From: Teseptimavirus PDP351P2
Length of the DNA stretch: 40,327 bases
Strand: one strand, 5' to 3'
Sequence record: OZ035763.1
Shown here: positions 1 through 40,089 of the stretch, in pieces
Layout of the letters: each line of letters opens with the position of its first letter
Numbering within the stretch: position 1 is the stretch's first letter
Notes under the pieces: generated by a model
Database searches by the model: none
What the model was told of the DNA's origin: nothing
Seen by the model: the letters and a program-made list of their open reading frames with translations, nothing else
Translations under genes and position numbers: made by a program

Positions 1-29
1 TGGAAGAAAGCCAATAAGGAGTGATATGT

Positions 30-299
30 ATGGAAAAAGATAAGAGCCTCATTACGTTCTTAGAGATGTTGGATACTGCGATGGCTCAGCGTATGCTTGC
101 TGACCTTTCGGACCCTGAGCGGCGCTCTCCGCAACTCTATAACGCCATTAATAAACTGTTAGACCGCCATAAGTTCCAGATTGGTAAGTTGCAGCCGGAT
201 GTTCACATCTTGGGTGGCCTTGCTGGTGCTCTTGAAGAGTACAAAGAGAAAGTCGGTGATAACGGTCTTACGGATGACGATATTTACACATTACAGTGA
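30..299 (+). CDS. 18: DNA maturation protein / small terminase subunit (T7 gp18 homolog), 89 aa
   Basis: ORF 21..299 in track; ATG at 30 preceded by AAGGAG; protein MEKDKSLITFLEMLDTAMAQRM... matches recalled T7 gp18 nearly residue for residue. Confidence 0.9.
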   Translation: MEKDKSLITFLEMLDTAMAQRMLADLSDPERRSPQLYNAINKLLDRHKFQIGKLQPDVHILGGLAGALEEYKEKVGDNGLTDDDIYTLQ

Positions 300-302
300 T
301 AT

Positions 303-345
303 ACTCAAGGCCACTACCTATAGTGGTCTTTATGGATGTCATTGT
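303..345 (+). promoter_or_regulatory. RNase III processing hairpin (R18.5-like)
   Basis: ACTCAAGG..CCACTACCTATAGTGG..CTTTATG motif shared with other intergenic hairpins in this window. Confidence 0.4.
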
Positions 346-394
346 CTATACGAGATGCTCCTACCGTGAAATCTGAAAGTTAACGGGAGGCATT

Positions 395-838
395 ATGCTA
401 CAATTTTTACGTAAGCTAATCCCTTGGGTTCTCGCTGGGATGCTATTCGGATTGGGATGGCATCTAGGGTCGGACTCAATGGACGCTAAATGGAAACAGG
501 AGGTACAGAATGAGTACGTTAAGAGAGTTGAGGCTACGGCGAGCACTCAAAGAGCAATCAACGAAATATCGGCTAAGTATCAAGAAGACCTTGCCGCGCT
601 GGAAGGGAGCACTGATAGGATTATTTCTGATTTGCGTAGCGACAATAAGCGGTTGCGCGTCAGAGTCAAAACTACCGGAACCTCCGATGGTCAGTGTGGA
701 TTCGAGCCTGATGGTCGAGCCGAACTTGACGAGCGAGATGCTAAAAGTATTCTCGCAGTGACCCAGAAGGGTGACGCATGGATTCGTGCGTTACAGGATA
801 CTATTCGTGAACTACAACGTAAGCAGGAAATCAAGTAA
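395..838 (+). CDS. 18.5: Rz-like i-spanin (T7 gp18.5 homolog)
   Basis: 147-aa ORF with N-terminal transmembrane segment LIPWVLAGMLFGLGW; matches recalled gp18.5. Confidence 0.9.
   Translation: MLQFLRKLIPWVLAGMLFGLGWHLGSDSMDAKWKQEVQNEYVKRVEATASTQRAINEISAKYQEDLAALEGSTDRIISDLRSDNKRLRVRVKTTGTSDGQCGFEPDGRAELDERDAKSILAVTQKGDAWIRALQDTIRELQRKQEIK
510..761 (+). CDS. 18.7: Rz1-like o-spanin embedded out of frame in 18.5 (T7 gp18.7 homolog)
   Basis: 83-aa ORF nested in another frame of 18.5, same length and arrangement as T7 18.7; lipobox-like ISGCAS. Confidence 0.75.
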   Translation: MSTLRELRLRRALKEQSTKYRLSIKKTLPRWKGALIGLFLICVATISGCASESKLPEPPMVSVDSSLMVEPNLTSEMLKVFSQ

Positions 839-847
839 GGAGGCAAC

Positions 848-1330
848 GTGTCTACTCAATCCAATCGTAATGCGCTCGTAGTGGCGCAACTGAAAGGAGA
901 CTTCGTAGCGTTTTTGTTCGTCTTATGGAAGGCTCTGAACTTACCTGTACCAACTAAGTGTCAGATTGACATGGCTAAGGTACTGGCGAATGGAGACAAC
1001 AAGAAGTTCATCCTACAGGCTTTCCGTGGTATCGGTAAGTCATTCATCACATGTGCGTTCGTTGTGTGGTCCTTATGGAGAGACCCTCAGTTGAAGATAC
1101 TCATTGTATCAGCCTCTAAGGAACGTGCAGACGCTAACTCCATCTTTATTAAGAACATCATTGACCTGCTGCCGTTTCTCAGCGAGTTGAAGCCAAGACC
1201 CGGACAGCGTGACTCTGTGATTAGTTTCGACGTAGGTCCAGCTAAGCCTGACCACTCTCCTAGTGTAAAATCGGTAGGTATCACTGGTCAGTTAACTGGT
1301 AGCCGTGCTGACATTATTATTGCGGACGAT
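848..1330 (+). CDS. 19: terminase large subunit, exon 1 (codons 1-161)
   Basis: [19 protein letters not shown]... matches recalled T7 gp19 N-terminus; ATPase motif GIGKSF; frame ends ...IIIADD then GAA TAA. Confidence 0.9.
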
Positions 1331-2166
1331 GAATAACCATGTCGTCCTTAAACCCATCTAAACAGGGAAACCCGGAGCCTAACATGGTATACGGCAATCC
1401 TGTGCTAAATGAGACAGCCATAAAGAGCCTTATAGGCTCCCTAAGCGTCTCTAAATGCCAAACGACTAAGTAGTAGGGCCAAGTGGCTCGAAACGGTGGG
1501 AGAGCATTTACGGATGCTCTAAGATATAGTCTCGTCTATGGTGAGAAGCCATAGCACCATTTATTACGTAACACATAAGGAGTCTAACATGACCACTATG
1601 AAGAAAACTCGATATGAAGTAGGTTCAATCCATGAGTCCCCTAAAGGTCCGCTCAAGGTCCTCGAGTACATTCCGGGATATAAGGACCGCTCAACAGGTA
1701 AAAAAGTACATCCTCGCGTAGTAATTCGTATGATGAACACAGGGACTGTGCTCAACGTTCAAACCACGAATATACCAGATGGTAAGTTTGAGGACTATCG
1801 ACGTCCCACAGTTTACGGCATTGGGTATATAGGGTCTTCCATTAAAATCACCGCTAGAGGGACATTCATTCGGCGTGTGTATGACCTATGGGCCAACATG
1901 CTTAAGCGCGTGGTTCATGAGTATCAGGGAGTATCCGTGGACCCAAGATGGCTCAACTTTACGAATTTCTTGGCGACTATTCCTGATGTTAAGGGATATG
2001 CTGCGTGGGAGCGTGGTGAGGATGTTCATCTGGATAAAGACCTAGCTGGGAATAAACGATACTCATTGGAGAACTGTGCGTTCATTCCAGCTAAAGACAA
2101 CATTCGAGAGTCTTCGTTACGTAGGTGGCGTAAGAAATAACGAGCTTACGTTAAGATAATTATTCG
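1331..2166 (+). mobile_element. putative group I self-splicing intron interrupting gene 19
   Basis: Removing 836 bp restores a continuous 586-codon frame (ADD|VEIPSN as in T7 gp19); exon ends in T, insert ends in G; intron 1341-1347 GTCGTCC pairs with exon 1324-1330 GGACGAT giving a U-G wobble at the 5' splice site; core-like GACTAAG (1464-1470) and AAGATATAGTC (1521-1531). Confidence 0.75.
1589..2140 (+). CDS. intron-encoded putative homing endonuclease, 183 aa, degenerate HNH-like C-terminal motif
   Basis: ORF inside the insert with own SD (AAGGAG 8 nt upstream of ATG 1589); C-terminus VHLDKDLAGNKRYSLENCAFIPAKDN resembles an HNH motif; track ORF begins at upstream ATG 1538. Confidence 0.55.
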   Translation: MTTMKKTRYEVGSIHESPKGPLKVLEYIPGYKDRSTGKKVHPRVVIRMMNTGTVLNVQTTNIPDGKFEDYRRPTVYGIGYIGSSIKITARGTFIRRVYDLWANMLKRVVHEYQGVSVDPRWLNFTNFLATIPDVKGYAAWERGEDVHLDKDLAGNKRYSLENCAFIPAKDNIRESSLRRWRKK

Positions 2167-3444
2167 GTGGAAATTCCATCTAACAGTGCAACTATGGGTG
2201 CCCGTGAGAAGCTATGGACTCTCGTTCAGGAGTTCGCTGCGTTACTTAAACCGCTGCCTTCCTCTCGCGTTATCTACCTTGGTACGCCTCAGACTGAGAT
2301 GACTCTCTATAAGGAACTTGAGGATAACCGTGGGTATACCACTATCATCTGGCCCGCTCTGTACCCAAGGACTCGTGAAGAGAACCTATATTACGCACAG
2401 CGCCTTGCTCCTATGCTGCGTGCTGAGTACGATGAGAACCCTGAGGCACTCGCTGGGACTCCTACTGACCCTGTGCGCTTTGACCGTGATGACCTTCGTG
2501 AGCGTGAGTTGGAATACGGTAAGGCTGGCTTCACACTACAGTTCATGCTTAACCCGAATCTGAGTGATGCCGAGAAGTACCCTCTGAGGCTCCGTGACGC
2601 TATCGTAGCGGCCTTAGACTTAGAGAAGGCCCCAATGCATTACCAGTGGCTTCCGAACCGTCAGAACATCATTGAGGACCTTCCTAACGTTGGTCTTAAG
2701 GGTGATGACCTTCATACTTACCACGATTGCTCCAACAACTCTGGTCAGTACCAACAGAAGATTCTGGTCATTGACCCTAGTGGTCGCGGTAAGGACGAAA
2801 CAGGTTACGCTGTACTGTACACCCTGAACGGTTACATCTACCTTATGGAAGCTGGAGGTTTCCGTGATGGCTACTCCGATAAGACCCTTGAGTTGCTCGC
2901 TAAGAAAGCCAAGCAATGGGGAGTCCAGACGGTTGTCTATGAGAGTAACTTCGGTGACGGTATGTTCGGTAAGGTATTCAGTCCTATCCTTCTTAAACAC
3001 CACAACTGTGCTATGGAAGAGATTCGTGCTCGTGGTATGAAGGAAATGCGTATTTGTGATACCCTTGAGCCAGTCATGCAGACTCACCGCCTTGTCATTC
3101 GTGATGAGGTCATTAGGGCCGACTATCAGTCCGCTCGTGACGTAGACGGTAAGCATGACGTTAAGTATTCACTGTTCTACCAGATGACCCGTATCACTCG
3201 TGAGAAAGGTGCTCTGGCTCATGATGACCGATTGGATGCCCTTGCGTTAGGCATTGAGTATCTCCGTGAGTCCATGCAGTTGGATTCCGTTAAGGTAGAA
3301 GGTGAAGTGCTTGCTGACTTCCTTGAGGAGCACATGATGCGCCCTACGGTAGCTGCTACGCATATCATTGAGATGTCTGTGGGAGGAGTTGATGTGTACT
3401 CTGAGGACGATGAGGGATACGGTACGTCTTTCATTGAGTGGTGA
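2167..3444 (+). CDS. 19: terminase large subunit, exon 2 (codons 162-586)
   Basis: Frame resumes GTG GAA ATT ([17 protein letters not shown]...), collinear with recalled T7 gp19 to the C-terminus ...GYGTSFIEW. Confidence 0.9.
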
Positions 3445-3481
3445 TTTATGAGGCCAAGGAAGGCCAATTTAAGGAGGTAAT

Positions 3482-3925
3482 ATGCTAAGTAAGAAGAAGT
3501 ATGTAGTCGATAAGGAGACTGGCTGCTGGAACTTTAAGGGTTGTAAGACGAAGAGTGGCTATGGTCGTCTCCGTGTAAATGGAGTCCATTGGATGGCCCA
3601 CAGGTATTCCCTGAGTTGTCATCTAGGCAGACCGATAGCTGACGGAATGGTTGTGATGCACCTGTGCGATAACCCATCGTGTGTTAACCCTGAGCATCTT
3701 AAGGAAGGGACTCAGAAGGAGAACATAGAGGATTGTATATCAAAAGGTAGGGCGATAAAGGCTACCGGTAAACGTGATGTGTCGAGAAGAGACCCTAGCG
3801 AGGAGCGTAAGGCTATAGTTATACGGCGCTACCATAAAGGATGGACAGCAACGTCCATAGCGAGATACCATAAGCTCTCTGTAGCGTGGGTAAAGAGGGT
3901 CATCGAGGCTTACCTAAGTGATTGA
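3482..3925 (+). CDS. free-standing HNH homing endonuclease (HNH_3-like)
   Basis: Strong SD AAGGAGG; motifs GC..GYGR, HR, HLCDNPSCVNPEHL, GTQKEN; no counterpart at this position in T7. Confidence 0.85.
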   Translation: MLSKKKYVVDKETGCWNFKGCKTKSGYGRLRVNGVHWMAHRYSLSCHLGRPIADGMVVMHLCDNPSCVNPEHLKEGTQKENIEDCISKGRAIKATGKRDVSRRDPSEERKAIVIRRYHKGWTATSIARYHKLSVAWVKRVIEAYLSD

Positions 3926-3976
3926 TATTTGAAATTAGTGATACAGGTCTAAGTATATGATTCCAGACCATTATTC

Positions 3977-3999
3977 TAATTCGACTCACTATAGGGAGA
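3977..3999 (+). promoter_or_regulatory. T7 RNAP promoter phiOR-like
   Basis: TAATTCGACTCACTATAGGGAGA, 1 mismatch to the 23-bp consensus. Confidence 0.8.
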
Positions 4000-4089
4000 A
4001 GCCTACCTAAAGATAACTATAAGACTTAAAGTGTCCTATAAGGTAGGTTGTTATTATATAGATACAACCAACATAAAGGAGGGAGACTC

Positions 4090-4239
4090 ATGTTCCGCTT
4101 ATTGTTGAACCTATTGCGGCATAGAGTCACCTACCGATTTCTTGTGGTACTTTGTGCTGCCATTGGGTACGCATCTCTTAATGGAGACCTCAGTTCACTG
4201 GAGTCTGCCGTTTGCTCTATACTCACTTGTAGCGATTAG
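4090..4239 (+). CDS. 19.5: gp19.5 homolog, 49 aa
   Basis: ATG 4090 after AAGGAGGGAG; MFRLLLNLLRHRVTYRFLVVLCAA... matches recalled T7 gp19.5; track ORF 4048..4239 is an upstream extension. Confidence 0.8.
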   Translation: MFRLLLNLLRHRVTYRFLVVLCAAIGYASLNGDLSSLESAVCSILTCSD

Positions 4240-4477
4240 GTCTTCCTGACCGACTGATGGCTCACCGAGGGATTCAGCGGTATGATTGCATCACACCACT
4301 TCATCCCTATAGAGTCAAGTCCTAAGGTATACCCATAAAGAGCCTCTAATGGTCTATCCTAAGGTCTATACCTAAAGATAGGCCATCCTATCAGTGTCAC
4401 CTAAAGAGAGGCTTAGAGAGGGCCTAAGGAGTCCCTAGAGGGTCCTTTAAAATATACCATAAAAATCTGAATGACTA

Positions 4478-4626
4478 TCTCACAGTGTACGGACCCAAAG
4501 TTCCCCCATAGGGGTACCCAAAGCCCAGCCAATCACCTAAAGTCAACCTTCGGTTGGCCTTGAGGGTCCCTAAAGGGTTGGTGGTTGGTCCTTTGGGTTT
4601 ACCTTTGAGTGTCTCTTCGTGTCCCT
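4478..4626. repeat. terminal repeat of the linear genome, single copy as at a concatemer junction
   Basis: TCTCACAGTGTACGGACC...GTGTCCCT is collinear with the recalled T7 160-bp terminal repeat; genome ends map here. Confidence 0.6.
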
Positions 4627-5966: not shown

Positions 5967-6274
5967 TGAAACATTACGTTATGCCTATCCACACCAAGAA
6001 CGGCGCTACAGTTTGCACACCTGATGGGTTCGCAATGAAACAGCGTATCGAACGCCTTAAGCGTGAACTACGCATCAACCACCTGAAAACCAACTACGGT
6101 ATAGATGAATCAGTGTACCGTAAGATGTATAAGGCACAACATGGGGTCTGCGCCATATGCAAACAACCTGAAAGCATTGAAGGTAGGCAACTATGTGTTG
6201 ACCATTCGCACATTACAGGAGACGTAAGGGGGACTTCTGTGCTCAAACTGCAACAGAGGAATAGGTCTGCTTAA
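5963..6274 (+). CDS. 0.6: gene 0.6 N-terminus fused to an Endonuclease VII-like domain, interrupted by +1 frameshift at a G5 run (domain continues in +1 frame to 6329)
   Basis: MMKHYVMPIHTKNGATVCTPDGFAMKQRIERLKRELRIN matches recalled T7 gp0.6; then CAICK...VDHSHITGDVRG (EndoVII-like); +1 frame after GGGGG 6228-6232 reads LLCSNCNRGIGLLKD...YLTGKL. Confidence 0.7.
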   Translation: MMKHYVMPIHTKNGATVCTPDGFAMKQRIERLKRELRINHLKTNYGIDESVYRKMYKAQHGVCAICKQPESIEGRQLCVDHSHITGDVRGTSVLKLQQRNRSA

Positions 6275-10756: not shown

Positions 10757-11173
10757 ATGAAAGATGCCGACCGATTCAACGCAAAGACTGAACCATGCGG
10801 AGAATGTATTCGTTGGACTGGTCGAATCCAGCCTAACGGGTACGGTCAGTTCCGATTAAACGGTAAAACGCAGTATGCACACAGGGCAGCTTACACGCTG
10901 TTCCATGGAGAAATACCAGAAGGATACGTGGTTATGCACTCCTGCGATAACAGATGGTGCGTAAACCCAAGTCACCTAACTTTAGGGACACAAGCTGATA
11001 ACCTCATCGACATGACCAGAAAAGGTAGACACAGTAAGACTGTAATACCAAACGATCACATAGAGGGAATCAGGAACGATACCCGCTCTTCCTACGTAAT
11101 AGCTAGGGAGTGGGGAGTGAACCCATCAACTATCCAAAAGATTAAATCTGGAAAGAATAGGAGATTTGTATGA
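10757..11173 (+). CDS. free-standing HNH homing endonuclease (HNH_3-like) between phi1.3 and the ligase gene
   Basis: C..C...GYG..R, AHR, VVMHSCDNRWCVNPSHL, GTQADN; paralog of the ORF at 3482; in T7, phi1.3 is followed directly by gene 1.3. Confidence 0.85.
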   Translation: MKDADRFNAKTEPCGECIRWTGRIQPNGYGQFRLNGKTQYAHRAAYTLFHGEIPEGYVVMHSCDNRWCVNPSHLTLGTQADNLIDMTRKGRHSKTVIPNDHIEGIRNDTRSSYVIAREWGVNPSTIQKIKSGKNRRFV

Positions 11174-14152: not shown

Positions 14153-14608
14153 GTGGCTGGCGCATATGCTGCGCGTGGTATCCGAAAGGTCGGGACATTC
14201 CGTTCCGGCCTAGAAGATAAGGTCTCTAAGCAGCTAGAGGGTAAGGGCATTCAGTTCGACTATGAACTGTGGAAAATCCCTTACGTTGTCCCTGCGAGCA
14301 ACCATATGTATACTCCAGACTTCCTGCTGCCTAACGGAATCTTTATTGAAACCAAAGGTTTATGGGAGAGTGACGACCGAAAGAAACACTTATTGATTCG
14401 CGAACAGTTTCCTGAACTGGACATCCGTCTGGTGTTCTCAAGCTCACGCACCAAGCTGTACAAAGGGTCTCCGACCAGTTATGGTGAATGGTGCGAGAAG
14501 CACGGCATTCTGTTTGCTGACAAATTAATTCCTGTAGAATGGCTCAAAGAACCCAAAAAGGAGGTGCCATTTGACAAGCTGAAACAATCGAAGGGAGGAA
14601 AGAAATAA
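14153..14608 (+). CDS. 3: endonuclease I, Holliday junction resolvase (T7 gp3 homolog)
   Basis: 151 aa; ...GIRKVGTFRSGLEDKVSKQLE...PDFLLPNGIF.ETKG; apparent GTG start directly after 2.5 stop. Confidence 0.9.
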   Translation: MAGAYAARGIRKVGTFRSGLEDKVSKQLEGKGIQFDYELWKIPYVVPASNHMYTPDFLLPNGIFIETKGLWESDDRKKHLLIREQFPELDIRLVFSSSRTKLYKGSPTSYGEWCEKHGILFADKLIPVEWLKEPKKEVPFDKLKQSKGGKK

Positions 14609-15063
14609 TGGCTCGTGTACAGTTTAAACAACGTGAATCTACTGATGCAATCTTTGTCCACTGCTCGGCTACCAAGCCAAGTCAGAATGTAGGAGTTCGC
14701 GAGATTCGACAGTGGCATAAAGAGCAAGGTTGGCTTGATGTTGGGTATCACTTTATCATCAAGCGCGATGGCACAGTAGAGGAAGGCCGAGATGAGATGG
14801 CTGTAGGCTCTCACGCTAAAGGTTATAATCACAACTCTATTGGTGTCTGCCTTGTAGGTGGTATCGACGATAGAGGTAAGTTCGACGCTAACTTTACGCC
14901 AGCCCAAATGCAATCCCTCCGCTCACTGCTTGTCACACTGCTGGCTAAGTACGAAGGCGCTGTACTTCGTGCACATCACGATGTGGCACCTAAGGCTTGC
15001 CCATCGTTCGACCTTAAGCGTTGGTGGGAAACTAATGAACTGGTCACTTCTGACCGTGGATAA
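14608..15063 (+). CDS. 3.5: lysozyme / N-acetylmuramoyl-L-alanine amidase (T7 gp3.5 homolog)
   Basis: 151 aa, MARVQFKQRESTDAIFVHCSATKPSQNVGVREIRQWHKEQGWLDVGYHF... Confidence 0.95.
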   Translation: MARVQFKQRESTDAIFVHCSATKPSQNVGVREIRQWHKEQGWLDVGYHFIIKRDGTVEEGRDEMAVGSHAKGYNHNSIGVCLVGGIDDRGKFDANFTPAQMQSLRSLLVTLLAKYEGAVLRAHHDVAPKACPSFDLKRWWETNELVTSDRG

Positions 15064-15064
15064 T

Positions 15065-15087
15065 TAATTGAACTCACTAAAGGGAGA
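15065..15087 (+). promoter_or_regulatory. T7 RNAP promoter phi3.8
   Basis: TAATTGAACTCACTAAAGGGAGA. Confidence 0.8.
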
Positions 15088-15123
15088 CCCAAGCGGTTTC
15101 CCTTTCAACACAAGGAGGAAGCT

Positions 15124-17278
<2,155 letters not shown>

Positions 17279-17296: not shown

Positions 17297-17319
17297 CAAT
17301 ACGACTCACTAAAGGAGAC
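17297..17319 (+). promoter_or_regulatory. T7 RNAP promoter phi4.3
   Basis: CAATACGACTCACTAAAGGAGAC. Confidence 0.8.
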
Positions 17320-17555: not shown

Positions 17556-17825
17556 ATGTCTAACGTAGCTGAAACTATCCGTCTATCCGATACCGCTGAC
17601 CAGTGGAACCGTCGGGTTCACATCAACGTTCGTAACGGAAAGGCTACTATGGTCTACCGTTGGAAGGACTCTAAGTCCTCTAAGAATCACACTCAGCGTA
17701 TGACGTTGACAGATGAGCAAGCACTGCGTCTGGTCAATGCGCTTACCAAAGCTGCCGTGACAGCAATCCATGAAGCTGGTCGCGCAGATGAAGCTATGGC
17801 TATCCTCAACAAGATTGATAGCTAA
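17556..17825 (+). CDS. 4.5: gp4.5 homolog, 89 aa
   Basis: MSNVAETIRLSDTADQWNRRVHINVRNGKATMVYRWKDSK...; track ORF 17529..17825 is an upstream extension. Confidence 0.85.
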   Translation: MSNVAETIRLSDTADQWNRRVHINVRNGKATMVYRWKDSKSSKNHTQRMTLTDEQALRLVNALTKAAVTAIHEAGRADEAMAILNKIDS

Positions 17826-17868
17826 GAGTGGTATACTCAAGGCCGCCCAAGTGGTGGCCTTCATGAAT
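17826..17868 (+). promoter_or_regulatory. RNase III processing site R4.7-like
   Basis: GTATACTCAAGGCCGCCCAAGTGGTGGCCTTCATGAATACT hairpin. Confidence 0.5.
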
Positions 17869-17891
17869 ACTATTCGACTCACTATAGGAGG
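17869..17891 (+). promoter_or_regulatory. T7 RNAP promoter phi4.7
   Basis: CTATTCGACTCACTATAGGAGGT. Confidence 0.75.
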
Positions 17892-17895
17892 TGGT

Positions 17896-18333
17896 ATGAA
17901 GATTTGTTCTAAGTGTGGGAATGGAAAACCGCTCACCGAGTTCGGAAAGGCTTCCCGCATGAAGGACGGTCTCAGAACTTGGTGTAAGGAGTGCGTCCGC
18001 AAAGATAACAATGCGAGATACCATAAGCACGATTCTGAGAAGCGAGAGGCTCACAGGTGGAGTTCGCGCAAATCTCAAATCAAGAAGTATGGCCTGACAG
18101 TAGAGCAGTACGAAGAACTATGGAACTCTCAGGAAGGAAAGTGTAAGATATGTGGTGACGCTATAATGGCACACTCATCTGAGAGGCATAAGGTAGCTTG
18201 TATTGACCACGACCATTTGACTTTGAAGGTTCGTGGACTTCTATGTTGGCACTGCAATATTGGCTTAGGTAAATTCTTCGATTCTACAGATAGGTTGGAG
18301 AATGCCATAAGGTATCTTAAAGGAGAACTCTAA
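17896..18333 (+). CDS. Endonuclease VII-like (Endonuclease_7 family) protein with N-terminal Cys cluster, at the gene 4.7 position, 145 aa
   Basis: CSKCGNGKP...CKEC; KYGLTVEQYEELWNSQEGKCKICGD...ACIDHDHLTLKVRGLLCWHCNIGLGKF...YLKGEL; track ORF 17770..18333 is an upstream extension. Confidence 0.8.
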   Translation: MKICSKCGNGKPLTEFGKASRMKDGLRTWCKECVRKDNNARYHKHDSEKREAHRWSSRKSQIKKYGLTVEQYEELWNSQEGKCKICGDAIMAHSSERHKVACIDHDHLTLKVRGLLCWHCNIGLGKFFDSTDRLENAIRYLKGEL

Positions 18334-20291
18334 TGATTGTCTCAGACATTGAATCAAACGGTCTACTTGAGACCACTACCAAATTTCACTGTGCGGTTAT
18401 CTATGACTACAGTACAGGAGAGTATACCAACTATCGTCCCACAGACTTTAGTAAATACCTTGACGCATTAGAGGCTGAGGTTTCAAAGGGAGGACTGATA
18501 GTAGGGCATAACTTCACTAAATTTGATATCCCCGCGTTGACAAAACTTGCTAAGTTACAATTGAACCGAGAGTTCCACATTCCCCGTGAGAACTGTATCG
18601 ACACCCTTGTGCTGTCACGTTTGATTCACTCTAACCTAAAGGACACCGATATGGGTCTTCTGCGTTCCGGTAAGTTACCCGGCAAACGCTTTGGGTCTCA
18701 CGCTTTGGAGGCGTGGGGTTATCGCTTAGGCGAAATGAAAGGTGAATACAAAGACGACTTTAAGCGTATGCTTGAAGAGCAAGGTGAAGAATACGTTGAC
18801 GGAATGGAGTGGTGGAACTTCAACGAAGAGATGATGGACTATAACGTTCAGGACGTTGTGGTCACTAAGGCTCTCCTTGAGAAGCTACTCTCTGACAAAC
18901 ATTACTTCCCTCCTGAGATTGACTTTACGGACGTAGGTTACACTACGTTCTGGTCAGAATCCCTTGAGGCCGTTGACGTTGAACATCGCGCTGCATGGCT
19001 ACTCGCTAAGCAAGAGCGCAATGGATTCCCGTTTGACACGAAAGCAATCGAAGAGTTGTACGTAGAGTTAGCCGCTCGACGCTCTGAGTTGCTCCGTAAA
19101 TTGACCGAAACGTTCGGCTCGTGGTATCAGCCTAAAGGTGGCACCGAAATGTTCTGCCATCCGAGGACCGGTAAGCCACTACCTAAATACCCTCGCATTA
19201 AGACACCTAAAGTTGGTGGTATCTTTAAGAAGCCTAAGAACAAGGCACAGCGAGAGGGCCGTGAGCCTTGCGAACTGGATACCCGCGAGTACGTTGCTGG
19301 TGCTCCTTATACGCCAGTTGAGCACGTGGTGTTTAACCCTTCGTCTCGTGACCACATTCAGAAGAAACTCCAAGAGGCTGGGTGGGTCCCCACGAAGTAC
19401 ACCGATAAGGGTGCTCCTGTGGTGGACGATGAGGTACTCGAAGGAGTACGTGTAGATGACCCTGAGAAGCAAGCTGCTATCGACCTCATTAAAGAGTACC
19501 TGATGATTCAGAAGAGAATCGGACAGTCTGCTGAGGGAGACAAGGCATGGCTTCGTTACGTTGCTGAGGATGGTAAGATTCATGGTTCTGTTAACCCTAA
19601 TGGAGCAGTTACTGGTCGTGCGACCCATGCGTTCCCCAACCTTGCGCAAATTCCGGGTGTACGTTCTCCTTATGGAGAGCAGTGTCGCGCTGCTTTTGGC
19701 GCTGAGCACCATTTGGATGGACTGACTGGTAAGCCTTGGGTTCAGGCTGGTATCGACGCATCCGGTCTGGAGCTACGCTGCTTAGCCCACTTCATGGCTC
19801 GCTTTGATAACGGTGAGTATGCTCACGAGATTCTTAATGGCGACATCCACACTAAGAACCAGATGGCTGCTGAACTGCCTACCCGTGATAACGCTAAGAC
19901 GTTCATCTATGGGTTCCTTTATGGTGCTGGTGACGAGAAGATTGGGCAGATTGTTGGCGCTGGTAAAGAGCGCGGTAAGGAACTCAAGAAGAAATTCCTT
20001 GAGAACACCCCAGCGATTGCAGCACTCCGAGAGTCTATCCAACAGACACTTGTCGAGTCCTCTCAGTGGGTAGCTGGTGAACAGCAAGTCAAGTGGAAAC
20101 GCCGCTGGATTAAAGGTCTGGATGGTCGTAAGGTACACGTTCGTAGTCCTCACGCTGCCTTGAATACCCTACTGCAATCTGCTGGTGCTCTCATCTGCAA
20201 ACTGTGGATTATCAAGACCGAAGAGATGCTCGTAGAGAAAGGCTTGAAGCACGGCTGGGATGGGGACTTTGCGTACATGGCATGGGTGCAT
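18333..20291 (+). CDS. 5: DNA polymerase, exon 1 (codons 1-653)
   Basis: [13 protein letters not shown]...collinear with recalled T7 gp5 up to ...FAYMAWVH; track ORF runs into the intron to 20315. Confidence 0.92.
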
Positions 20292-20892
20292 AAACTATTT
20301 CATTGTGCACATTAAATCTGGTGAACTCGGTGAAACCCTAATGGGGCAATACCGAGCCAAGCCATAGGGAGGATATATGAGAGGCAAGAAGTTAATTCTT
20401 GAGGCCACTGAGACTGGCTGTATCATCCCTACGTCACACAAACTTAATGCCGATGGTTATTTCAGAAAGAAAACCAATGGCGTCTTAGAGATGTATCACA
20501 GAACGGTGTGGAAGGAGCATAACGGAGAAATACCTGAGGGCTTCGAGATAGACCATAAGTGTCGCAATAGGGCTTGCTGTAATATAGAGCATTTACAGAT
20601 GCTTGAAGGTACAGCCCACACTGTTAAGACCAACCGTGAACGCTACGCAGACAGAAAGGAAACAGCTAGGGAATACTGGCTGGAGACTGGATGTACCGGC
20701 CTAGCACTAGGTGAGAAGTTTGGTGTGTCGTTCTCTTCTGCTTGTAAGTGGATTAGAGAATGGAAGGCGTAGAGACTATCCGAAAGGAGTAGGGCCGAGG
20801 GTGAGACTCCCTCGTAACCCGAAGCGCCAGACAGTCAACTCAAAGACTGATGATATAGTCCGACACTCCTAGTAATAGGAGAATACAGAAAG
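20292..20892 (+). mobile_element. group I intron in DNA polymerase gene 5
   Basis: Removing 601 bp restores a 704-codon gp5 frame (WVH|DEIQVGCRTEE); exon ends in T, intron ends in G; intron GTGCAC (20305-20310) pairs with exon GTGCAT (20286-20291) giving U-G at the splice site; GATATAGTCC core-like element at 20853-20862. Confidence 0.8.
20377..20772 (+). CDS. intron-encoded HNH homing endonuclease, 131 aa
   Basis: SD GGGAGG; motifs YHRTVW, EIDHKCRNRACCNIEHL, H-T. Confidence 0.8.
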   Translation: MRGKKLILEATETGCIIPTSHKLNADGYFRKKTNGVLEMYHRTVWKEHNGEIPEGFEIDHKCRNRACCNIEHLQMLEGTAHTVKTNRERYADRKETAREYWLETGCTGLALGEKFGVSFSSACKWIREWKA

Positions 20893-21048
20893 GATGAAAT
20901 ACAAGTAGGTTGCCGTACCGAAGAGATTGCTCAGGTGGTCATTGAGACCGCACAAGAAGCAATGCGCTGGGTTGGAGACCACTGGAACTTCCGGTGTCTT
21001 CTGGATACCGAAGGTAAGATGGGTCCTAACTGGGCCGTATGTCATTGA
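20893..21048 (+). CDS. 5: DNA polymerase, exon 2 (codons 654-704)
   Basis: DEIQVGCRTEEIAQVVIETAQEAMRWVGDHWNFRCLLDTEGKMGPNWAVCH matches the recalled T7 gp5 C-terminus. Confidence 0.9.
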   Translation, partial: DEIQVGCRTEEIAQVVIETAQEAMRWVGDHWNFRCLLDTEGKMGPNWAVCH

Positions 21049-21067
21049 TTCTATAGGAGAAATTATT

Positions 21068-34383: not shown

Positions 34384-37300
34384 ATGGATAAGTACGATAA
34401 GAACGTACCAAGTGATTATGATGGTCTGTTCCAAAAGGCGGCTGATGCCAACGGGGTCTCTTATGACCTTTTACGTAAAGTCGCTTGGACAGAATCACGA
34501 TTTGTACCTACAGCGAAATCTAAGACTGGACCATTAGGCATGATGCAATTCACCAAGGAAACCGCTAAGGCCCTTGGTCTGCGAGCTACCGATGGTCCAG
34601 ACGATGACCGACTGAACCCTGAGTTAGCCATCAATGCTGCCGCTAAGCACCTTGCAGGTCTGGTAGGGAAGTTTGATGGCGATGAACTCAAAGCTGCCCT
34701 TGCGTACAACCAAGGCGAGGGACGCTTGGGTAATCCACAACTTGAGGCGTACTCCAAGGGAGACTTCGCGTCCATCTCTGAGGAAGGACGTAATTACATG
34801 CGTAACCTTCTGGATGTCGCTAAGTCACCTATGGCTGGGCAGTTGGAAACTTTTGGTGGTATCACCCCAAAGGGTAAAGGAATTCCGGCTGAGGTAGGAT
34901 TGGCTGGAATTGGTCACAAGCAGAAAGTAACACAGGAACTTCCTGAGTCAACAAGTTTTGACGTTAAGGGTATAGAACAGGAGGCTCCGGCGAAACCATT
35001 CGCCAAGGACTTTTGGGAGACCCACGGAGAAACACTTGACGAGTACAACAGTCGTTCAACCTTCTTCGGATTCAAAGACGCTGCCGAAGCTGAACTCTCC
35101 AACTCAGTCGCTGGAATGGCTTTCCGTGCTGGTCGTCTCGATAATGGTTTTGATGTGTTTAAAGACACCATTACGCCGACTCGCTGGAACTCTCACATCT
35201 GGACTCCAGAAGAGTTAGAGAAGATTCGAACTGAGGTTAAGAACCCAGCGTACATCAACGTGGTAACTGGTGGTTCCCCTGAGAATCTTGACGACCTCAT
35301 TAAGCTGGCTAACGATAACTTTGAGAATGACTCCCGCGCTGCCGAAGCTGGCCTAGGTGCCAAACTGAGTGCTGGTATTATTGGTGCTGGTGTGGACCCA
35401 CTTAGCTATGTTCCTATGGTCGGTGTCACTGGTAAGGGCTTTAAGTTAATCAATAAGGCTCTTGTAGTTGGTGCAGAAAGTGCTGCGCTGAACGTTGCAT
35501 CCGAAGGTCTACGTACCTCCGTAGCTGGTGGTGACGCGGACTATGCAGGTGCTGCTTTAGGTGGCTTTGTGTTTGGTGCTGGTATGTCTGCAATCAGTGA
35601 CGCTGTAGCTGCTGGTCTGAAACGTAGCAAACCAGAAGCTGAGTTCGATAATGAGTTCATTGGCCCTATGATGCGGATGGAAGCCCGTGAGACAGCACGT
35701 AACGCCAACTCTGCGGACCTCTCGCGGATGAACACTGAGAACATGAAGTTTGAAGGTGAACATAATGGTGTCCCTTATGAGGACTTACCGACAGAGAAAG
35801 GTGCCGTGGTGTTGCATGATGGCTCCGTTCTGAGTGCAAGCAACCCAATCAACCCTAAGACTCTAAAAGAGTTCTCCGAGGTTGACCCTGAGAAGGCTGC
35901 GCGAGGAATCAAACTTGCTGGGTTCACCGAGATTGGCTTGAAGACCTTGGGGTCTGACGATGCTGACATTCGTAGAGTAGCTATTGACCTCGTTCGCTCT
36001 CCTACTGGTATGCAGTCTGGTGCCTCAGGTAAGTTTGGTGCAACAGCTTCTGACATCCATGAGAGGCTTCACGGTACTGACCAGCGTACTTATAATGACT
36101 TGTATAAGGCAATGTCTGACGCTATGAAAGACCCTGAGTTCTCTACTGGTGGCGCTAAGATGTCCCGTGAAGAAACTCGCTACACTATCTACCGTAGAGC
36201 GGCACTGGCTATTGAGCGTCCAGAGTTACAGAAGGCACTCACTCCGTCTGAGAGAATCGTTATGGACATCATTAAGCGTCACTTTGACACCAAGCGTGAA
36301 CTTATGGAGAACCCAGCAATCTTCGGTAATACGAAGGCTGTTAGTATCTTCCCTGAGAGTCGTCATAAGGGAACCTACGTTCCTCACGTATACGACCGTC
36401 ACGCCAAGGCGCTGATGATTCAACGCTACGGTGCCGAAGGTTTACAGGAAGGTATTGCTCGTTCGTGGATGAACAGCTACGTCTCCAGACCTGAGGTCAA
36501 GGCCAGAGTCGATGAGATGCTTAAGGAAGTACACGGGGTGAAGGAAGTAACGCCAGAGATGGTAGAGAAGTACGCTATGGATAAGGCTTACGGTATCTCC
36601 CACTCAGACCAGTTCACCAACAGTTCCATAATCGAAGAGAACATTGAGGGCTTAGTAGGTATCGAGAACAACTCATTCCTTGAGGCACGTAACTTGTTTG
36701 ATTCGGACCTATCCATCACTATGCCAGACGGACAGCAATTCTCAGTGAACGACCTAAGGGACTTCGATATGTTCCGCATCATGCCAGCATATGACCGCCG
36801 TATCAATGGTGACATCGCCATCATGGGGTCTACTGGGAAAACCACTAAGGAACTTAAGGATGAGATTTTGGCTCTCAAAGCGAAAGCTGAGGGTGACGGT
36901 AAGAAGACTGGCGAGGTTCATGCTCTTATGGATACCGTTAAGATTCTTACTGGTCGTGCTCGACGTAATCAGGACACTGTGTGGGAAACCTCACTGCGTT
37001 CCATCAATGACCTAGGGTTCTTCGCTAAGAACGCCTATATGGGTGCACAGAACATTACGGAGATTGCTGGGATGATTGTCACTGGTAACGTTCGTACTCT
37101 CAGTCACGGTATCCCAATTCTACGTGACACCCTCTACAAGTCTAAACCAGTTTCCGCTAAGGAACTCAAGGAACTCCATGCGTCTCTGTTCGGGAAGGAG
37201 GTTGACCAGTTGATTCGCCCTAAACGTGCTGACATTGTGCAGCGCCTAAGGGAAGCAACTGATACCGGACCTGCTGTGGCGAACATCGTAGGGACCTTGA

Positions 37301-38340
37301 AGTATTCCACACAGGAACTGGCTGCTCGCTCTCCGTGGACTAAGCTGCTGAACGGAACCACTAACTACCTTCTGGATGCTGCGCGTCAAGGTATGCTTGG
37401 GGACGTTATTAGTGCCACCCTAACAGGTAAGACTACCCGCTGGGAGAAAGAAGGATTCCTTCGGGGTGCCTCAGTAACTCCTGAGCAGATGGCTGGAATC
37501 AAGGCTCTCATCAAGGAACATATGGTACGTGGTGAGGACGGGAAGTTTACAGTTAAGGACAAGCAAGCGTTCTCTATGGACCCTCGTGCTATGGACTTAT
37601 GGAGACTGGCTGACAAGGTAGCTGATGAGGCAATGCTACGTCCACATAAGGTGTCCTTACAGGATTCCCATGCGTTCGGAGCACTAGGTAAGATGGTTAT
37701 GCAGTTTAAGACTTTCACTATCAAGTCCCTTAACTCTAAGTTCCTGCGAACCTTCTACGATGGATACAAGAACAACCGAGCGATTGACGCTGCGCTGAGC
37801 ATTATCACCTCTATGGGCCTAGCTGGTGGTTTCTACGCTATGGCTGCTCACGTCAAAGCATACGCTCTTCCTAAGGAGAAACGTAAGGAGTACTTGGAGC
37901 GTGCACTGGACCCAACCATGATTGCCCACGCTGCGTTGTCTCGTAGTTCTCACTTGGGTGCTCCTTTGGCTATGGTTGACCTAGTTGGTGGTGCCTTAGG
38001 GCTCGAGTCCTCCAAGATGGCTCGCTCTACGATTCTACCTAAGGACACCATGAAGGAACGTGACCCAAACAAACCGTACACCTCTAGAGAGGTAATGGGA
38101 GCTATTGGTTCGAACCTTCTGGAGCAGATGCCTTCCGCTGGCTTTGTGGCTAACGTAGGGGCTACCTTAATGAATGCTGCTGGCGTGGTAAACTCACCTA
38201 ACAAAGCAACCGAGCAGGACTTCATGACTGGCTTGATGAACTCTACCAAGGAGTTAGTACCTAACGACCCATTGACTCAACAGCTTGTGTTGAAGATTTA
38301 TGAGGCGAACGGTGTTAACTTGAGGGAGCGTAGGAAATAA
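34384..38340 (+). CDS. 16: internal virion protein D with N-terminal lytic transglycosylase domain (T7 gp16 homolog)
   Basis: 1318 aa; N-terminus ...VAWTESRFVPTAKSKTGPLGMMQFT... (SLT-type motif). Confidence 0.97.
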   Translation: MDKYDKNVPSDYDGLFQKAADANGVSYDLLRKVAWTESRFVPTAKSKTGPLGMMQFTKETAKALGLRATDGPDDDRLNPELAINAAAKHLAGLVGKFDGDELKAALAYNQGEGRLGNPQLEAYSKGDFASISEEGRNYMRNLLDVAKSPMAGQLETFGGITPKGKGIPAEVGLAGIGHKQKVTQELPESTSFDVKGIEQEAPAKPFAKDFWETHGETLDEYNSRSTFFGFKDAAEAELSNSVAGMAFRAGRLDNGFDVFKDTITPTRWNSHIWTPEELEKIRTEVKNPAYINVVTGGSPENLDDLIKLANDNFENDSRAAEAGLGAKLSAGIIGAGVDPLSYVPMVGVTGKGFKLINKALVVGAESAALNVASEGLRTSVAGGDADYAGAALGGFVFGAGMSAISDAVAAGLKRSKPEAEFDNEFIGPMMRMEARETARNANSADLSRMNTENMKFEGEHNGVPYEDLPTEKGAVVLHDGSVLSASNPINPKTLKEFSEVDPEKAARGIKLAGFTEIGLKTLGSDDADIRRVAIDLVRSPTGMQSGASGKFGATASDIHERLHGTDQRTYNDLYKAMSDAMKDPEFSTGGAKMSREETRYTIYRRAALAIERPELQKALTPSERIVMDIIKRHFDTKRELMENPAIFGNTKAVSIFPESRHKGTYVPHVYDRHAKALMIQRYGAEGLQEGIARSWMNSYVSRPEVKARVDEMLKEVHGVKEVTPEMVEKYAMDKAYGISHSDQFTNSSIIEENIEGLVGIENNSFLEARNLFDSDLSITMPDGQQFSVNDLRDFDMFRIMPAYDRRINGDIAIMGSTGKTTKELKDEILALKAKAEGDGKKTGEVHALMDTVKILTGRARRNQDTVWETSLRSINDLGFFAKNAYMGAQNITEIAGMIVTGNVRTLSHGIPILRDTLYKSKPVSAKELKELHASLFGKEVDQLIRPKRADIVQRLREATDTGPAVANIVGTLKYSTQELAARSPWTKLLNGTTNYLLDAARQGMLGDVISATLTGKTTRWEKEGFLRGASVTPEQMAGIKALIKEHMVRGEDGKFTVKDKQAFSMDPRAMDLWRLADKVADEAMLRPHKVSLQDSHAFGALGKMVMQFKTFTIKSLNSKFLRTFYDGYKNNRAIDAALSIITSMGLAGGFYAMAAHVKAYALPKEKRKEYLERALDPTMIAHAALSRSSHLGAPLAMVDLVGGALGLESSKMARSTILPKDTMKERDPNKPYTSREVMGAIGSNLLEQMPSAGFVANVGATLMNAAGVVNSPNKATEQDFMTGLMNSTKELVPNDPLTQQLVLKIYEANGVNLRERRK

Positions 38341-38360
38341 TACGACTCACTATAGGGAGA
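38338..38360 (+). promoter_or_regulatory. T7 RNAP promoter phi17
   Basis: TAATACGACTCACTATAGGGAGA exact consensus. Confidence 0.9.
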
Positions 38361-38412
38361 GGCGAAATAATCTTCTCCCTGTAGTCTCTTAGATTTACTT
38401 TAAGGAGGTCAA

Positions 38413-40089
38413 ATGGCTAACGCAATTAAAACAGTTTTGACTTACCAGTTAGATGGCTCCAATCGTGATTTTAATATCCCGTTTGAGTATCTAGCCCGTA
38501 AGTTCGTAGTGGTAACTCTTATTGGTGTAGACCGAAAGGTCCTTACGATTAATACAGACTATCGCTTTGCTACGCGTACTACCATCTCACTGACCAAGGC
38601 TTGGGGTCCAGCGGATGGCTATACTACCATCGAGTTACGTCGAGTAACCTCCACAACCGACCGCTTGGTTGACTTTACGGACGGCTCAATCCTCCGTGCG
38701 TATGACCTTAACGTCGCTCAGATTCAAACGATGCATGTAGCAGAAGAGGCCCGTGACCTAACTGCCGATACTATCGGTGTCAATAATGATGGTCACTTGG
38801 ATGCGCGTGGTCGTCGAATTGTGAACCTAGCGAACGCCGTGGATGACCGTGACGCTGTTCCGCTTGGTCAACTAAAGACGATGAACCAGAGCTCTTGGCA
38901 AGCTCGCAATGAGGCTCTACAGTTCCGTAATGAGGCTGAGACTTTCAGAAATCAAGCGGAGGGCTTTAAGAACGAGTCCAGTACCAACGCTACGAACACA
39001 AAGCAGTGGCGTGATGAGGCTAAGGGGTTCCGAGATGAAGCTGAGCAGTTCAAGAATACGGCTGGTCAATATGCCACATCTGCTGGTAACTCTGCGGCTG
39101 CTGCTCATCAATCTGAGGTAAATGCTGGGAACTCTGCTACAGCATCTACTAACTCTGCGCATTTGGCAGAACAACACGCAGACCGTGCGGAACGCGAAGC
39201 AGACAAGCTGGGGAATTTTAACGGACTAGCTGGCGCAATTGACAGGGTGGATGGAACCAATGTGTACTGGAAAGGAGGTATCCATGCGAACGGACGCCTT
39301 TACCTTACCTCAGATGGTTTTGACTGTGGTCAGTATCAACAGTTCTTTGGTGGTGGCACTAATAGTTATTCTATCATGGAGTGGGGAGATGATAACGGAT
39401 GGCTGATGCATGTTCAACGTAGAGAGGGGACAACAGCGATAGGCGGTAACATCCAGTTAGTAGTAAACGGACAGATCATCACCCAAGGTGGAGCCATGAC
39501 CGGTCAGCTAAAATTGCAGAATGGGCATGTTCTTCAATTAGAGTCCGCATCCGACAAGGCTCACTATATTCTATCTAAAGATGGTAACAGGAATAACTGG
39601 TACATTGGTAGAGGGTCAGATAACAACAATGACTGTACCTTCCACTCCTATGTACATGGTACGACCTTAACACTCAAGCAGGACTATGCAGTAGTTAACA
39701 AACACTTCCACGTAGGTCAGGCCGTTGTGTCCACTGATGGTAATATTCAAGGTACTAAGTGGGGAGGTAAGTGGCTTGATGTTTACCTAAACGATACTTA
39801 CGTTAAGAAGACAATGGCTTGGACTCAAGTATGGGCTGCTGATAGTGGTAGGTTCCTGCCAGGAGGTTCTCAGACTGGTACTCTCCCACAGGACTTGCGA
39901 TTCCGCAACATATGGATTAGGACCAAACACAACTATTGGAACTTCTTCCGAACTGGTCCTGATGGTATCTACTTCCTTTCAGCCGAGGGCGGTTGGCTAA
40001 AATTCCAGATACACTCTAATGGCAGGGTATTTAAGAACATAGAGGATAGAGATGCGCCTCCAACAGCAATAGCCGTAGAGGACGTGTAA
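38413..40089 (+). CDS. 17: tail fiber protein (T7 gp17 homolog) with divergent C-terminal tip
   Basis: 558 aa; N-terminal two thirds near-identical to recalled T7 gp17; distal roughly 100 aa differ. Confidence 0.95.
   Translation: MANAIKTVLTYQLDGSNRDFNIPFEYLARKFVVVTLIGVDRKVLTINTDYRFATRTTISLTKAWGPADGYTTIELRRVTSTTDRLVDFTDGSILRAYDLNVAQIQTMHVAEEARDLTADTIGVNNDGHLDARGRRIVNLANAVDDRDAVPLGQLKTMNQSSWQARNEALQFRNEAETFRNQAEGFKNESSTNATNTKQWRDEAKGFRDEAEQFKNTAGQYATSAGNSAAAAHQSEVNAGNSATASTNSAHLAEQHADRAEREADKLGNFNGLAGAIDRVDGTNVYWKGGIHANGRLYLTSDGFDCGQYQQFFGGGTNSYSIMEWGDDNGWLMHVQRREGTTAIGGNIQLVVNGQIITQGGAMTGQLKLQNGHVLQLESASDKAHYILSKDGNRNNWYIGRGSDNNNDCTFHSYVHGTTLTLKQDYAVVNKHFHVGQAVVSTDGNIQGTKWGGKWLDVYLNDTYVKKTMAWTQVWAADSGRFLPGGSQTGTLPQDLRFRNIWIRTKHNYWNFFRTGPDGIYFLSAEGGWLKFQIHSNGRVFKNIEDRDAPPTAIAVEDV

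Follow-up and report, generated by a model that had tools for sequence, protein, structure and literature searches.

The genome of Teseptimavirus PDP351P2 (OZ035763.1), analysed here over its whole 40,327-nt stretch (hereafter, the window), raises the question of how a T7-like phage would produce an intact DNA polymerase when its gene 5 is broken by 601 bases within the catalytic motif C. An initial, sequence-only reading had proposed that the interruption is a group I intron carrying an HNH endonuclease. Our analysis points in the same direction and allows a more precise naming: with a probability of about 95%, positions 20292-20892 would be a mobile, self-splicing group I intron of subgroup IA2, devoid of P2, and the same element as the I-TslI intron of phages PhiI and W31. 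All features of the gene and of the intron described below are located on the plus strand of the window. The window itself is a complete, circularly permuted T7-like genome, in which positions 1-4626 correspond to the right end of T7 (36524-39937); the T7 left end begins near 4478, and the overlap at 4478-4626 corresponds to the terminal repeat.

Interruption of gene 5 and the restored polymerase

Gene 5 starts at position 18333. Its first exon (18333-20291; 653 codons) was delimited from the list of open reading frames, from colinearity with T7 and from the 704-aa spliced product, and ends with AYMAWVH, the codon of His653 being CAU. The second exon (20893-21048; 51 codons and a stop) is colinear with T7 16312-16468 and opens with the catalytic Asp654-Glu655 (DEIQVGC). 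Blastn comparison with T7 aligned window positions 18321-20291 to T7 14340-16311, and window positions 20893-21049 to T7 16312-16468. Since the two segments abut on T7, the 601-base insert lies exactly between two adjacent T7 bases. At its boundaries the window reads ..GCATGGGTGCAT/AAACTATTT...ACAGAAAG/GATGAAATA, with T20291 as the last base of exon 1 and G20892 as the last base of the insert, both as previously reported, and the spliced junction of gene 5 would read ..GGGUGCAU-GAUGAAAU.. The exon join is CAU/GAU, i.e. His653/Asp654 of motif C (HDE), so the break falls between the His and the Asp, as had been claimed. Asp654 of the T7 DNA polymerase is one of its two metal-binding aspartates, and His653-Asp654 correspond to His881-Asp882 in E. 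coli (Klenow fragment numbering).

Joining 18333-20291 to 20893-21048 yields an open reading frame of 704 aa, identical to T7 gp5 at 681 of 704 positions and to the intron-less gp5 of Yersinia phage YpsP-G at 682 of 704. Removal of the 601 bp does therefore restore a polymerase of T7 length, as the sequence-only reading had it. The delineation of the intron at 20292-20892 (601 nt, IA2-type, with omega-G at 20892) combines this gap relative to the intron-less T7 and YpsP-G with the match to Rfam family RF00028 and with the covariation described below.

An insertion of this kind could in principle encode an intein or some other in-frame protein segment excised post-translationally, catalytic polymerase motifs being typical intein sites too. 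The reading frames are incompatible with such an origin: the unspliced frame of gene 5 encounters a stop at 20313-20315, 7 codons past exon 1, the length of 601 nt is not a multiple of three, and the ORF carried by the insert is in another frame and has its own start. We consequently discarded this explanation.

Another scenario is that no splicing takes place: gene 5 would give rise to a truncated polymerase or to one made of two polypeptides, and a free-standing endonuclease gene would separate its halves. In the records of several relatives the polymerase is indeed annotated as split, for instance as 'DNA-directed DNA polymerase (x2)', and exon 2 of phage SU7 is annotated as a coding sequence of its own, with a ribosome-binding site. 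In the window, however, the frame of exon 2 contains a stop at 20851 and then no ATG, GTG or TTG until the GTG at 20935, so that the catalytic Asp654-Glu655 would be missing from a product translated separately. Furthermore, the RNA flanking the endonuclease gene is a conserved, covarying ribozyme, and the near-identical introns of PhiI and W31 are cited as self-splicing, to go by the title of Bonocora and Shub (2004) as it appears in PMC3428280. An unspliced, two-piece polymerase is thus very improbable, and a spliced gene 5 is the reading pursued here.

Fold and conservation of the intron RNA

Helices were assigned by hand from the cmscan alignment together with the conserved R and S elements. 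P1 is formed by the end of the exon (20286-20291, GUGCAU) and the internal guide sequence at 20305-20310 (GUGCAC); it comprises 6 bp, among them U20291·G20305, with the 5' splice site after U20291. The same 6-bp helix with its U-G wobble had been proposed from the sequence alone, and it was recovered both in the cmscan alignment and in the pair list. The 5' part of the guide sequence (20297-20304, AUUUCAUU) pairs over 8 bp with the very beginning of exon 2 (20893-20900, GAUGAAAU), forming P10. The ribozyme core is divided into a 5' half (20317-20365), which extends from the 5' strand of P3 to the 5' strand of P6a, and a 3' half (20760-20892), which extends from P6a' to omega-G at 20892, the 3' end of the intron. 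The core contains P3 (20317-20323 with 20825-20831), P4 (20327-20332 with 20350-20355), P5 (20336-20339 with 20343-20346), P6 (20356-20358 with 20766-20768), P6a (20362-20365 with 20760-20763) and P7 (20774-20778 with 20856-20860), as well as P8 (20833-20848), J8/7 (20849-20855) and P9 (20866-20881). The 3' strand of P7 lies inside GAUAUAGUCC at 20852-20861. In this respect the sequence-only reading was one base off, for it had placed the motif at 20853-20862 and GATATAGTCC occupies 20852-20861.

P2 is absent from the intron and is deleted in the cmscan alignment. Between P7 and the 3' strand of P3 we found P7.1 (20779-20788) and P7.2 (20792-20820), joined by a GUA linker (20789-20791). Subgroup IA2 is distinguished by additional helices P7.1 and P7.2 with G-U-A between them (PMC3428280), and the intron is assigned to this subgroup.

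Searched in E-value mode, the Rfam model Intron_gpI (RF00028) aligns over its full length to positions 20282-20882 with a score of 44.9 bits, corresponding to an E-value of 4.4e-10 for a search of 801 nt and of 2.2e-8 for the whole window. When Rfam was scanned at the gathering threshold (50 bits), no match was returned, as 44.9 bits falls below it. The covariance-model search that had been proposed as a check is thus favourable as far as the E-value is concerned, and falls short at the gathering score. The shortfall of ~5 bits is probably due to the ORF of ~400 nt, which is carried as one insertion, and to the missing P2. In a relative in which the ORF is reduced to 65 codons (L034), Intron_gpI reaches 51.6 bits, above the gathering score.

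In order to evaluate the fold thermodynamically, the ORF was replaced by a GAAA loop. Both the minimum free energy and the centroid structures of this ORF-less construct consist of exactly P3-P6a, P7.1, P7.2, P8 and P9, with an energy of -66.7 kcal/mol as compared to -47.1 ± 4.8 kcal/mol for shuffled sequences (z = -4.1). P7 is missing from the minimum free energy fold because it is a pseudoknot.

Homologous introns were collected from IMG/VR loci found via the ORF and from the GenBank phages 13a, K1F, SU7, PAS59 and Vp_R1. Every locus kept in the alignment showed the two halves of the core; the locus of Aeromonas phage MQM1 (L040) was excluded from the RNA alignment, its 5' match being located in a different, upstream intron. 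Covariation was assessed on 15 ORF-less intron versions. In these 15 homologues, 93.2% of the alignment cells assigned to helices are paired, as opposed to 37-43% in slid controls, whose 3' partners are displaced by 1-3 columns; both sides have changed in 26 of 65 pairs (6-12 in the slid controls). The covariation score is 0.316, compared to 0.05-0.08 for the slid controls and 0.137 for shuffles, and none of 500 shuffles reaches 0.316. Compensation is strongest in P3 (6 of 7 pairs) and P7.1 (3 of 3), followed by P9, P8 and P7.2; P4, P5, P6 and P6a show one or two compensatory pairs each. P7 and most of P4 are invariant and therefore uninformative for covariation. Taken with P1, P3-P10, omega-G and the Rfam E-value of 2.2e-8, covariation above the controls upholds the initial identification of the insert as a group I intron.

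The helices involving the exons are likewise maintained. P1 is paired in 97.8% of cells, and the U·G at the 5' splice site is kept in all 15 homologues. The outermost pair of P1 displays covariation between exon and intron, being G-C in T7-like phages and A-U in SU7, PAS59 and Vp_R1. P10 is paired in 87% of cells across the 15 homologues. In SU7 and PAS59, exon 1 ends in ..GACATGCAT and exon 2 begins with GATGAAGG, which again corresponds to His/Asp-Glu, and the guide sequence is altered to match. The last six bases of the exon are (G/A)TGCAT in 15 of 15 intron-bearing alleles, whereas all four Val codons and both His codons occur among 120 sampled intron-less alleles, of which only 21 carry GTGCAT. 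This pattern, drawn from 15 related sequences, is suggestive of, and fits, a constraint that P1 may impose on the wobble positions of the exon.

The intron-borne endonuclease and its relatives

The loop of P6a accommodates a 396-nt ORF (20377-20772, 131 aa), for which the sequence-only reading had indicated an HNH endonuclease. Its product matches Pfam HNH_3 (PF13392) with an E-value of 3.5e-16 and a score of 59 bits (cut-off, 24.8), which substantiates that indication, and is identical to I-TslI of phage PhiI (AAV53690.1) at 129 of 131 positions, the two differences being the conservative substitutions E51D and E54D. The entry AAV53690.1, 'I-TslI [Phage PhiI]', is also a member of the 86%-identity cluster to which the ORF belongs. 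An HNH_3 domain is present in all of the relatives listed, at least 120 of the 207 found. A Shine-Dalgarno-like GGGAGG (20367-20372), read from the sequence, precedes the ATG of the ORF by 4 nt and may serve in its translation. No phage promoter was found inside the intron, the nearest upstream matches being at 17297 and 17870. Separate transcription of the ORF was accordingly not supported, and its messenger would instead be either the gene 5 transcript or the excised intron. At its other end, the final codons of the ORF (UGG AAG GCG UAG) double as the 3' strands of P6a and P6 and as J6/7, the stop being one base away from P7; this overlap with the catalytic core is of modest interest and is not established as new. 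The predicted fold of the protein may resemble that of I-HmuI, an HNH (beta-beta-alpha-metal) homing endonuclease and the best structural match to the model, and may include a helix-turn-helix region at the C-terminus. Comparison of the ORF sequence with solved structures produced only a chance match to a GroEL-like protein (E 0.13).

It might be supposed that the intron splices and has lost its mobility, its HNH ORF being inactive or decaying and its inheritance purely vertical. The two substitutions relative to I-TslI would be compatible with such a state, and decay of the ORF is seen in relatives from IMG/VR (L033, L034 and L035). The ORF of the window is nevertheless of full length, and both of its substitutions are conservative. 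All 26 columns that are invariant in an alignment of 34 relatives are retained in it, including Cys15, His21, Asn24, DGYFR (26-30), His41, His60, Cys62, Cys67, His72, His81 and Asn86; among relatives, His60, Asn69, His72 and the Cys residues vary little or not at all. In addition, dN/dS is ~0.07 relative to the copies of 13a and K1F, and the protein is therefore under purifying selection. Loss of mobility appears unlikely in view of these data, and we retain the reading of a mobile intron.

Synonymous divergence from 13a is 1.2 for the ORF and 0.37 for exon 1 of gp5, i.e. ~3 times higher for the ORF, and among relatives conservation is far higher in the ribozyme parts than in the ORF. The ~3-fold difference in dS suggests that the history of the ORF is partly separate from that of its host gene; the ORF, or the intron as a whole, may have been exchanged independently of gene 5.

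Elements of this type have been described in other phages. Bonocora and Shub are said to have placed the introns of PhiI and W31 in subgroup IA2 in 2004 and, in 2009, to have reported that mobility of the PhiI intron depends on I-TslI, which cleaves or nicks the intron-less allele and thereby drives transfer in one direction. The DNA polymerase introns of PhiI and W31 have been tabulated as 601 nt long with a 131-aa HNH ORF, I-TslI (AY769989, AY769990; PMC1995217). First described by Bonocora and Shub in 2004, they are inserted at site 881 (E. coli Pol I numbering), with the ORF located in P6a, and the Pf-WMP3 intron, assigned to IA2, was modelled on them (PMC3428280). I-TslI is listed among the intron-encoded nicking homing endonucleases (PMC8845596). 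The intron of the window agrees with those of PhiI and W31 in its length of 601 nt, its 131-aa ORF, its insertion at site 881 (His/Asp of motif C), the location of the ORF in P6a and the lack of P2, a likeness that draws on ORF identity, tabulated lengths and the cited site. It differs by the two substitutions in the ORF and by its carrier, another T7-like phage whose closest relatives, LNA7 and Bas102, are ~98% identical over the region. The suspicion that the insert belongs to a known class of gene 5 introns was therefore justified: the ORF is 98% identical to I-TslI, and in the comparison with published gene 5 introns, which had been recommended, intron size, ORF length and site all agree with PhiI and W31.

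Introns of the same architecture occupy the same site in phages 13a (EU734174), K1F (DQ111067) and Bas102 (PQ850620), where gp5 is annotated as joined and with an internal endonuclease gene. Their identity to the intron of the window is 87%, 81% and 98%, respectively; across these introns, the ORF is much more diverged than either the ribozyme or the exons. More distant counterparts are found in SPO1, SP82, Bastille and Pf-WMP3, which also harbor group I introns with HNH endonucleases in family A DNA polymerase genes. The enzymes concerned (I-HmuI, I-HmuII and I-BasI of SPO1, SP82 and Bastille, and I-PfoP3I of Pf-WMP3) nick one strand (PMC3428280). These introns are inserted at site 674, as opposed to 881 here (E. 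coli numbering), and their endonucleases are larger (161-188 aa).

Gene 5.3, which in T7 follows gene 5, had been noted as missing from this genome. Only 19 nt separate the gp5 stop (21048) from the start of gene 5.5 (21068), neither the T7 nor the T3 version of gene 5.3 is present, and T7 16469-16833, which holds gene 5.3, has no counterpart in the window. Absence of the T7 gene thus stands, although T7 was the wrong relative to consider, the intron HNH protein being related to T3 gene 5.3. We rejected T7 gp5.3 as a relative of the intron ORF: it is a PD-(D/E)XK protein (PF11645, PDDEXK_5) and gives a blastp E-value of 4.3. T3 gp5.3, on the other hand, matches HNH_3 and shares 48% identity with the intron ORF over residues 6-94 of the latter (E 2e-31). 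The T3 gene differs from the intron ORF in that it is free-standing, between genes 5 and 5.5, and has no equivalent of the 37 C-terminal residues that make up the modelled helix-turn-helix region. Bonocora and Shub (2009) reportedly found T3 gene 5.3 to be a free-standing homologue, with cleavage of intron-less polymerase genes at the position of I-TslI. Our literature search for F-TslI, or for gene 5.3 as a homing endonuclease, found no publication. The 5.3 genes of T7 (L042 16483-16839) and T3 (L163 2366-2671) occupy the same slot after gene 5 and belong to unrelated families; two endonuclease families (PD-(D/E)XK and HNH_3) have settled at one intergenic site. A proposal from 2009, outlined in PMC2988022, holds that a free-standing endonuclease already aimed at an intron insertion site recombines into an endonuclease-less intron and thereby creates a mobile intron.

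Proposed splicing and homing of the element, and its distribution

The anatomy of the intron suggests the following steps of splicing. Gene 5 would be transcribed by the phage RNA polymerase within a longer transcript, in which the exon GUGCAU would pair with the guide sequence to form P1, and a free guanosine bound at P7 would attack after U20291. The guide sequence would then hold exon 2 through the 8-bp P10, and the freed 3'-OH of exon 1 would attack after omega-G20892. Ligation would produce CAU-GAU, rebuilding motif C (His653-Asp654-Glu655) and with it the full 704-aa polymerase.

For mobility, the steps are drawn from published work on PhiI as well as from homology. The ORF in the P6a loop, of 131 aa, would be translated from its own ribosome-binding site. 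Near the insertion site, its product would nick or cut intron-less copies of gene 5 carried by co-infecting relatives; the intron, along with adjacent exon bases, would then be copied into the recipient by recombinational repair. The carrier would be protected, its target site being interrupted by the intron.

At least 80% of the intron is present in 54 phage records of the phage collection. Carriers include members of Teseptimavirus and Kayfunavirus and, more partially, Aeromonas phage MQM1. Among close relatives the insertion site is polymorphic: it is empty in T7 and YpsP-G, and filled in 13a, K1F, Bas102 and others, where the gene is annotated as spliced. The spread across phage families is of modest interest and is not established as new.

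Several variants of the element were encountered among the relatives. In the IMG/VR loci L033, L034 and L035, internal deletions have left 78, 65 and 36 codons of the ORF, in introns of 434, 396 and 382 nt, respectively, and the ribozyme halves are unchanged despite these deletions. From their sequences, this looks like decay of the endonuclease after fixation, an expected later stage of the homing cycle. A group of IMG/VR phages of ~43 kb with a 57-58% identical intron ORF possesses a second group I intron in the polymerase gene, ~470 nt upstream; it is seen in L033 (680-950; Rfam 68.7 bits) and also in L011, L019, L020 and L029 near 917. The polymerase of Aeromonas phage MQM1 is annotated in three pieces. 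In SU7 (L037, ~2098-2104), L007, L008, L027 and L039, the intron ends in ..AAUG, which creates an in-frame ATG directly before exon 2 (ATG/GAT GAA..); the intron of the window ends in ..AAAG/GAT and does not have the ATG of the SU7-type relatives.

Gene 5 is not the only interrupted gene of this genome. Gene 19, which encodes the large terminase subunit, contains a second group I intron at 1331-2166, where the alignment with T7 breaks between T7 37851 and 37853. Intron_gpI scores 49.0 bits at 1291-1554 (gathering score, 50; E 1.3e-9). Splicing at GAT/GAATAA...TTATTCG/GTGGAA (U1330, G2166) would produce a gp19 of 586 aa that hardly differs from the T7 protein (..IIIADD/VEIP..). A 200-aa ORF (1538-2140) without a Pfam match lies 3' of the core. 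Similar inserts, with 88-90% identity, were found in the Salmonella phages Vi06, CHRF_10027 and Sal_R1S, and none reached 95% or more.

Free-standing endonuclease-type genes are also present. A 187-aa ORF with an Endonuclease VII domain (17770-18333; PF02945, E 2.7e-20) is located where T7 has gene 4.7, and its end coincides with the start of gene 5. Four further ORFs absent from T7 (3482-3925, 10757-11173, 15124-15606 and 6017-6274) comprise three HNH_3 proteins (147 aa with HTH_23, 138 aa and 160 aa) and one short Endonuclease VII-like protein. Including the two intron ORFs, the genome harbors approximately seven endonuclease-type genes.

The element in gene 5 is an already known one, an I-TslI-type IA2 intron described in 2004 and 2009, so that the find is real but ordinary, and it makes no open question newly testable. 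It comes with a set of sequences for comparison, made up of at least 15 diverse copies together with intron-less alleles and naturally occurring variants whose ORF has decayed. For annotation, its value is that the polymerase of this phage is to be recorded as one spliced 704-aa protein and not as two fragments (many related GenBank records still show the polymerase gene as split), and that the 131-aa ORF is to be called an I-TslI ortholog and not a generic 'HNH endonuclease'. The intron also exemplifies a published idea, according to which one conserved polymerase site is the target of free-standing and intron-borne endonucleases alike.
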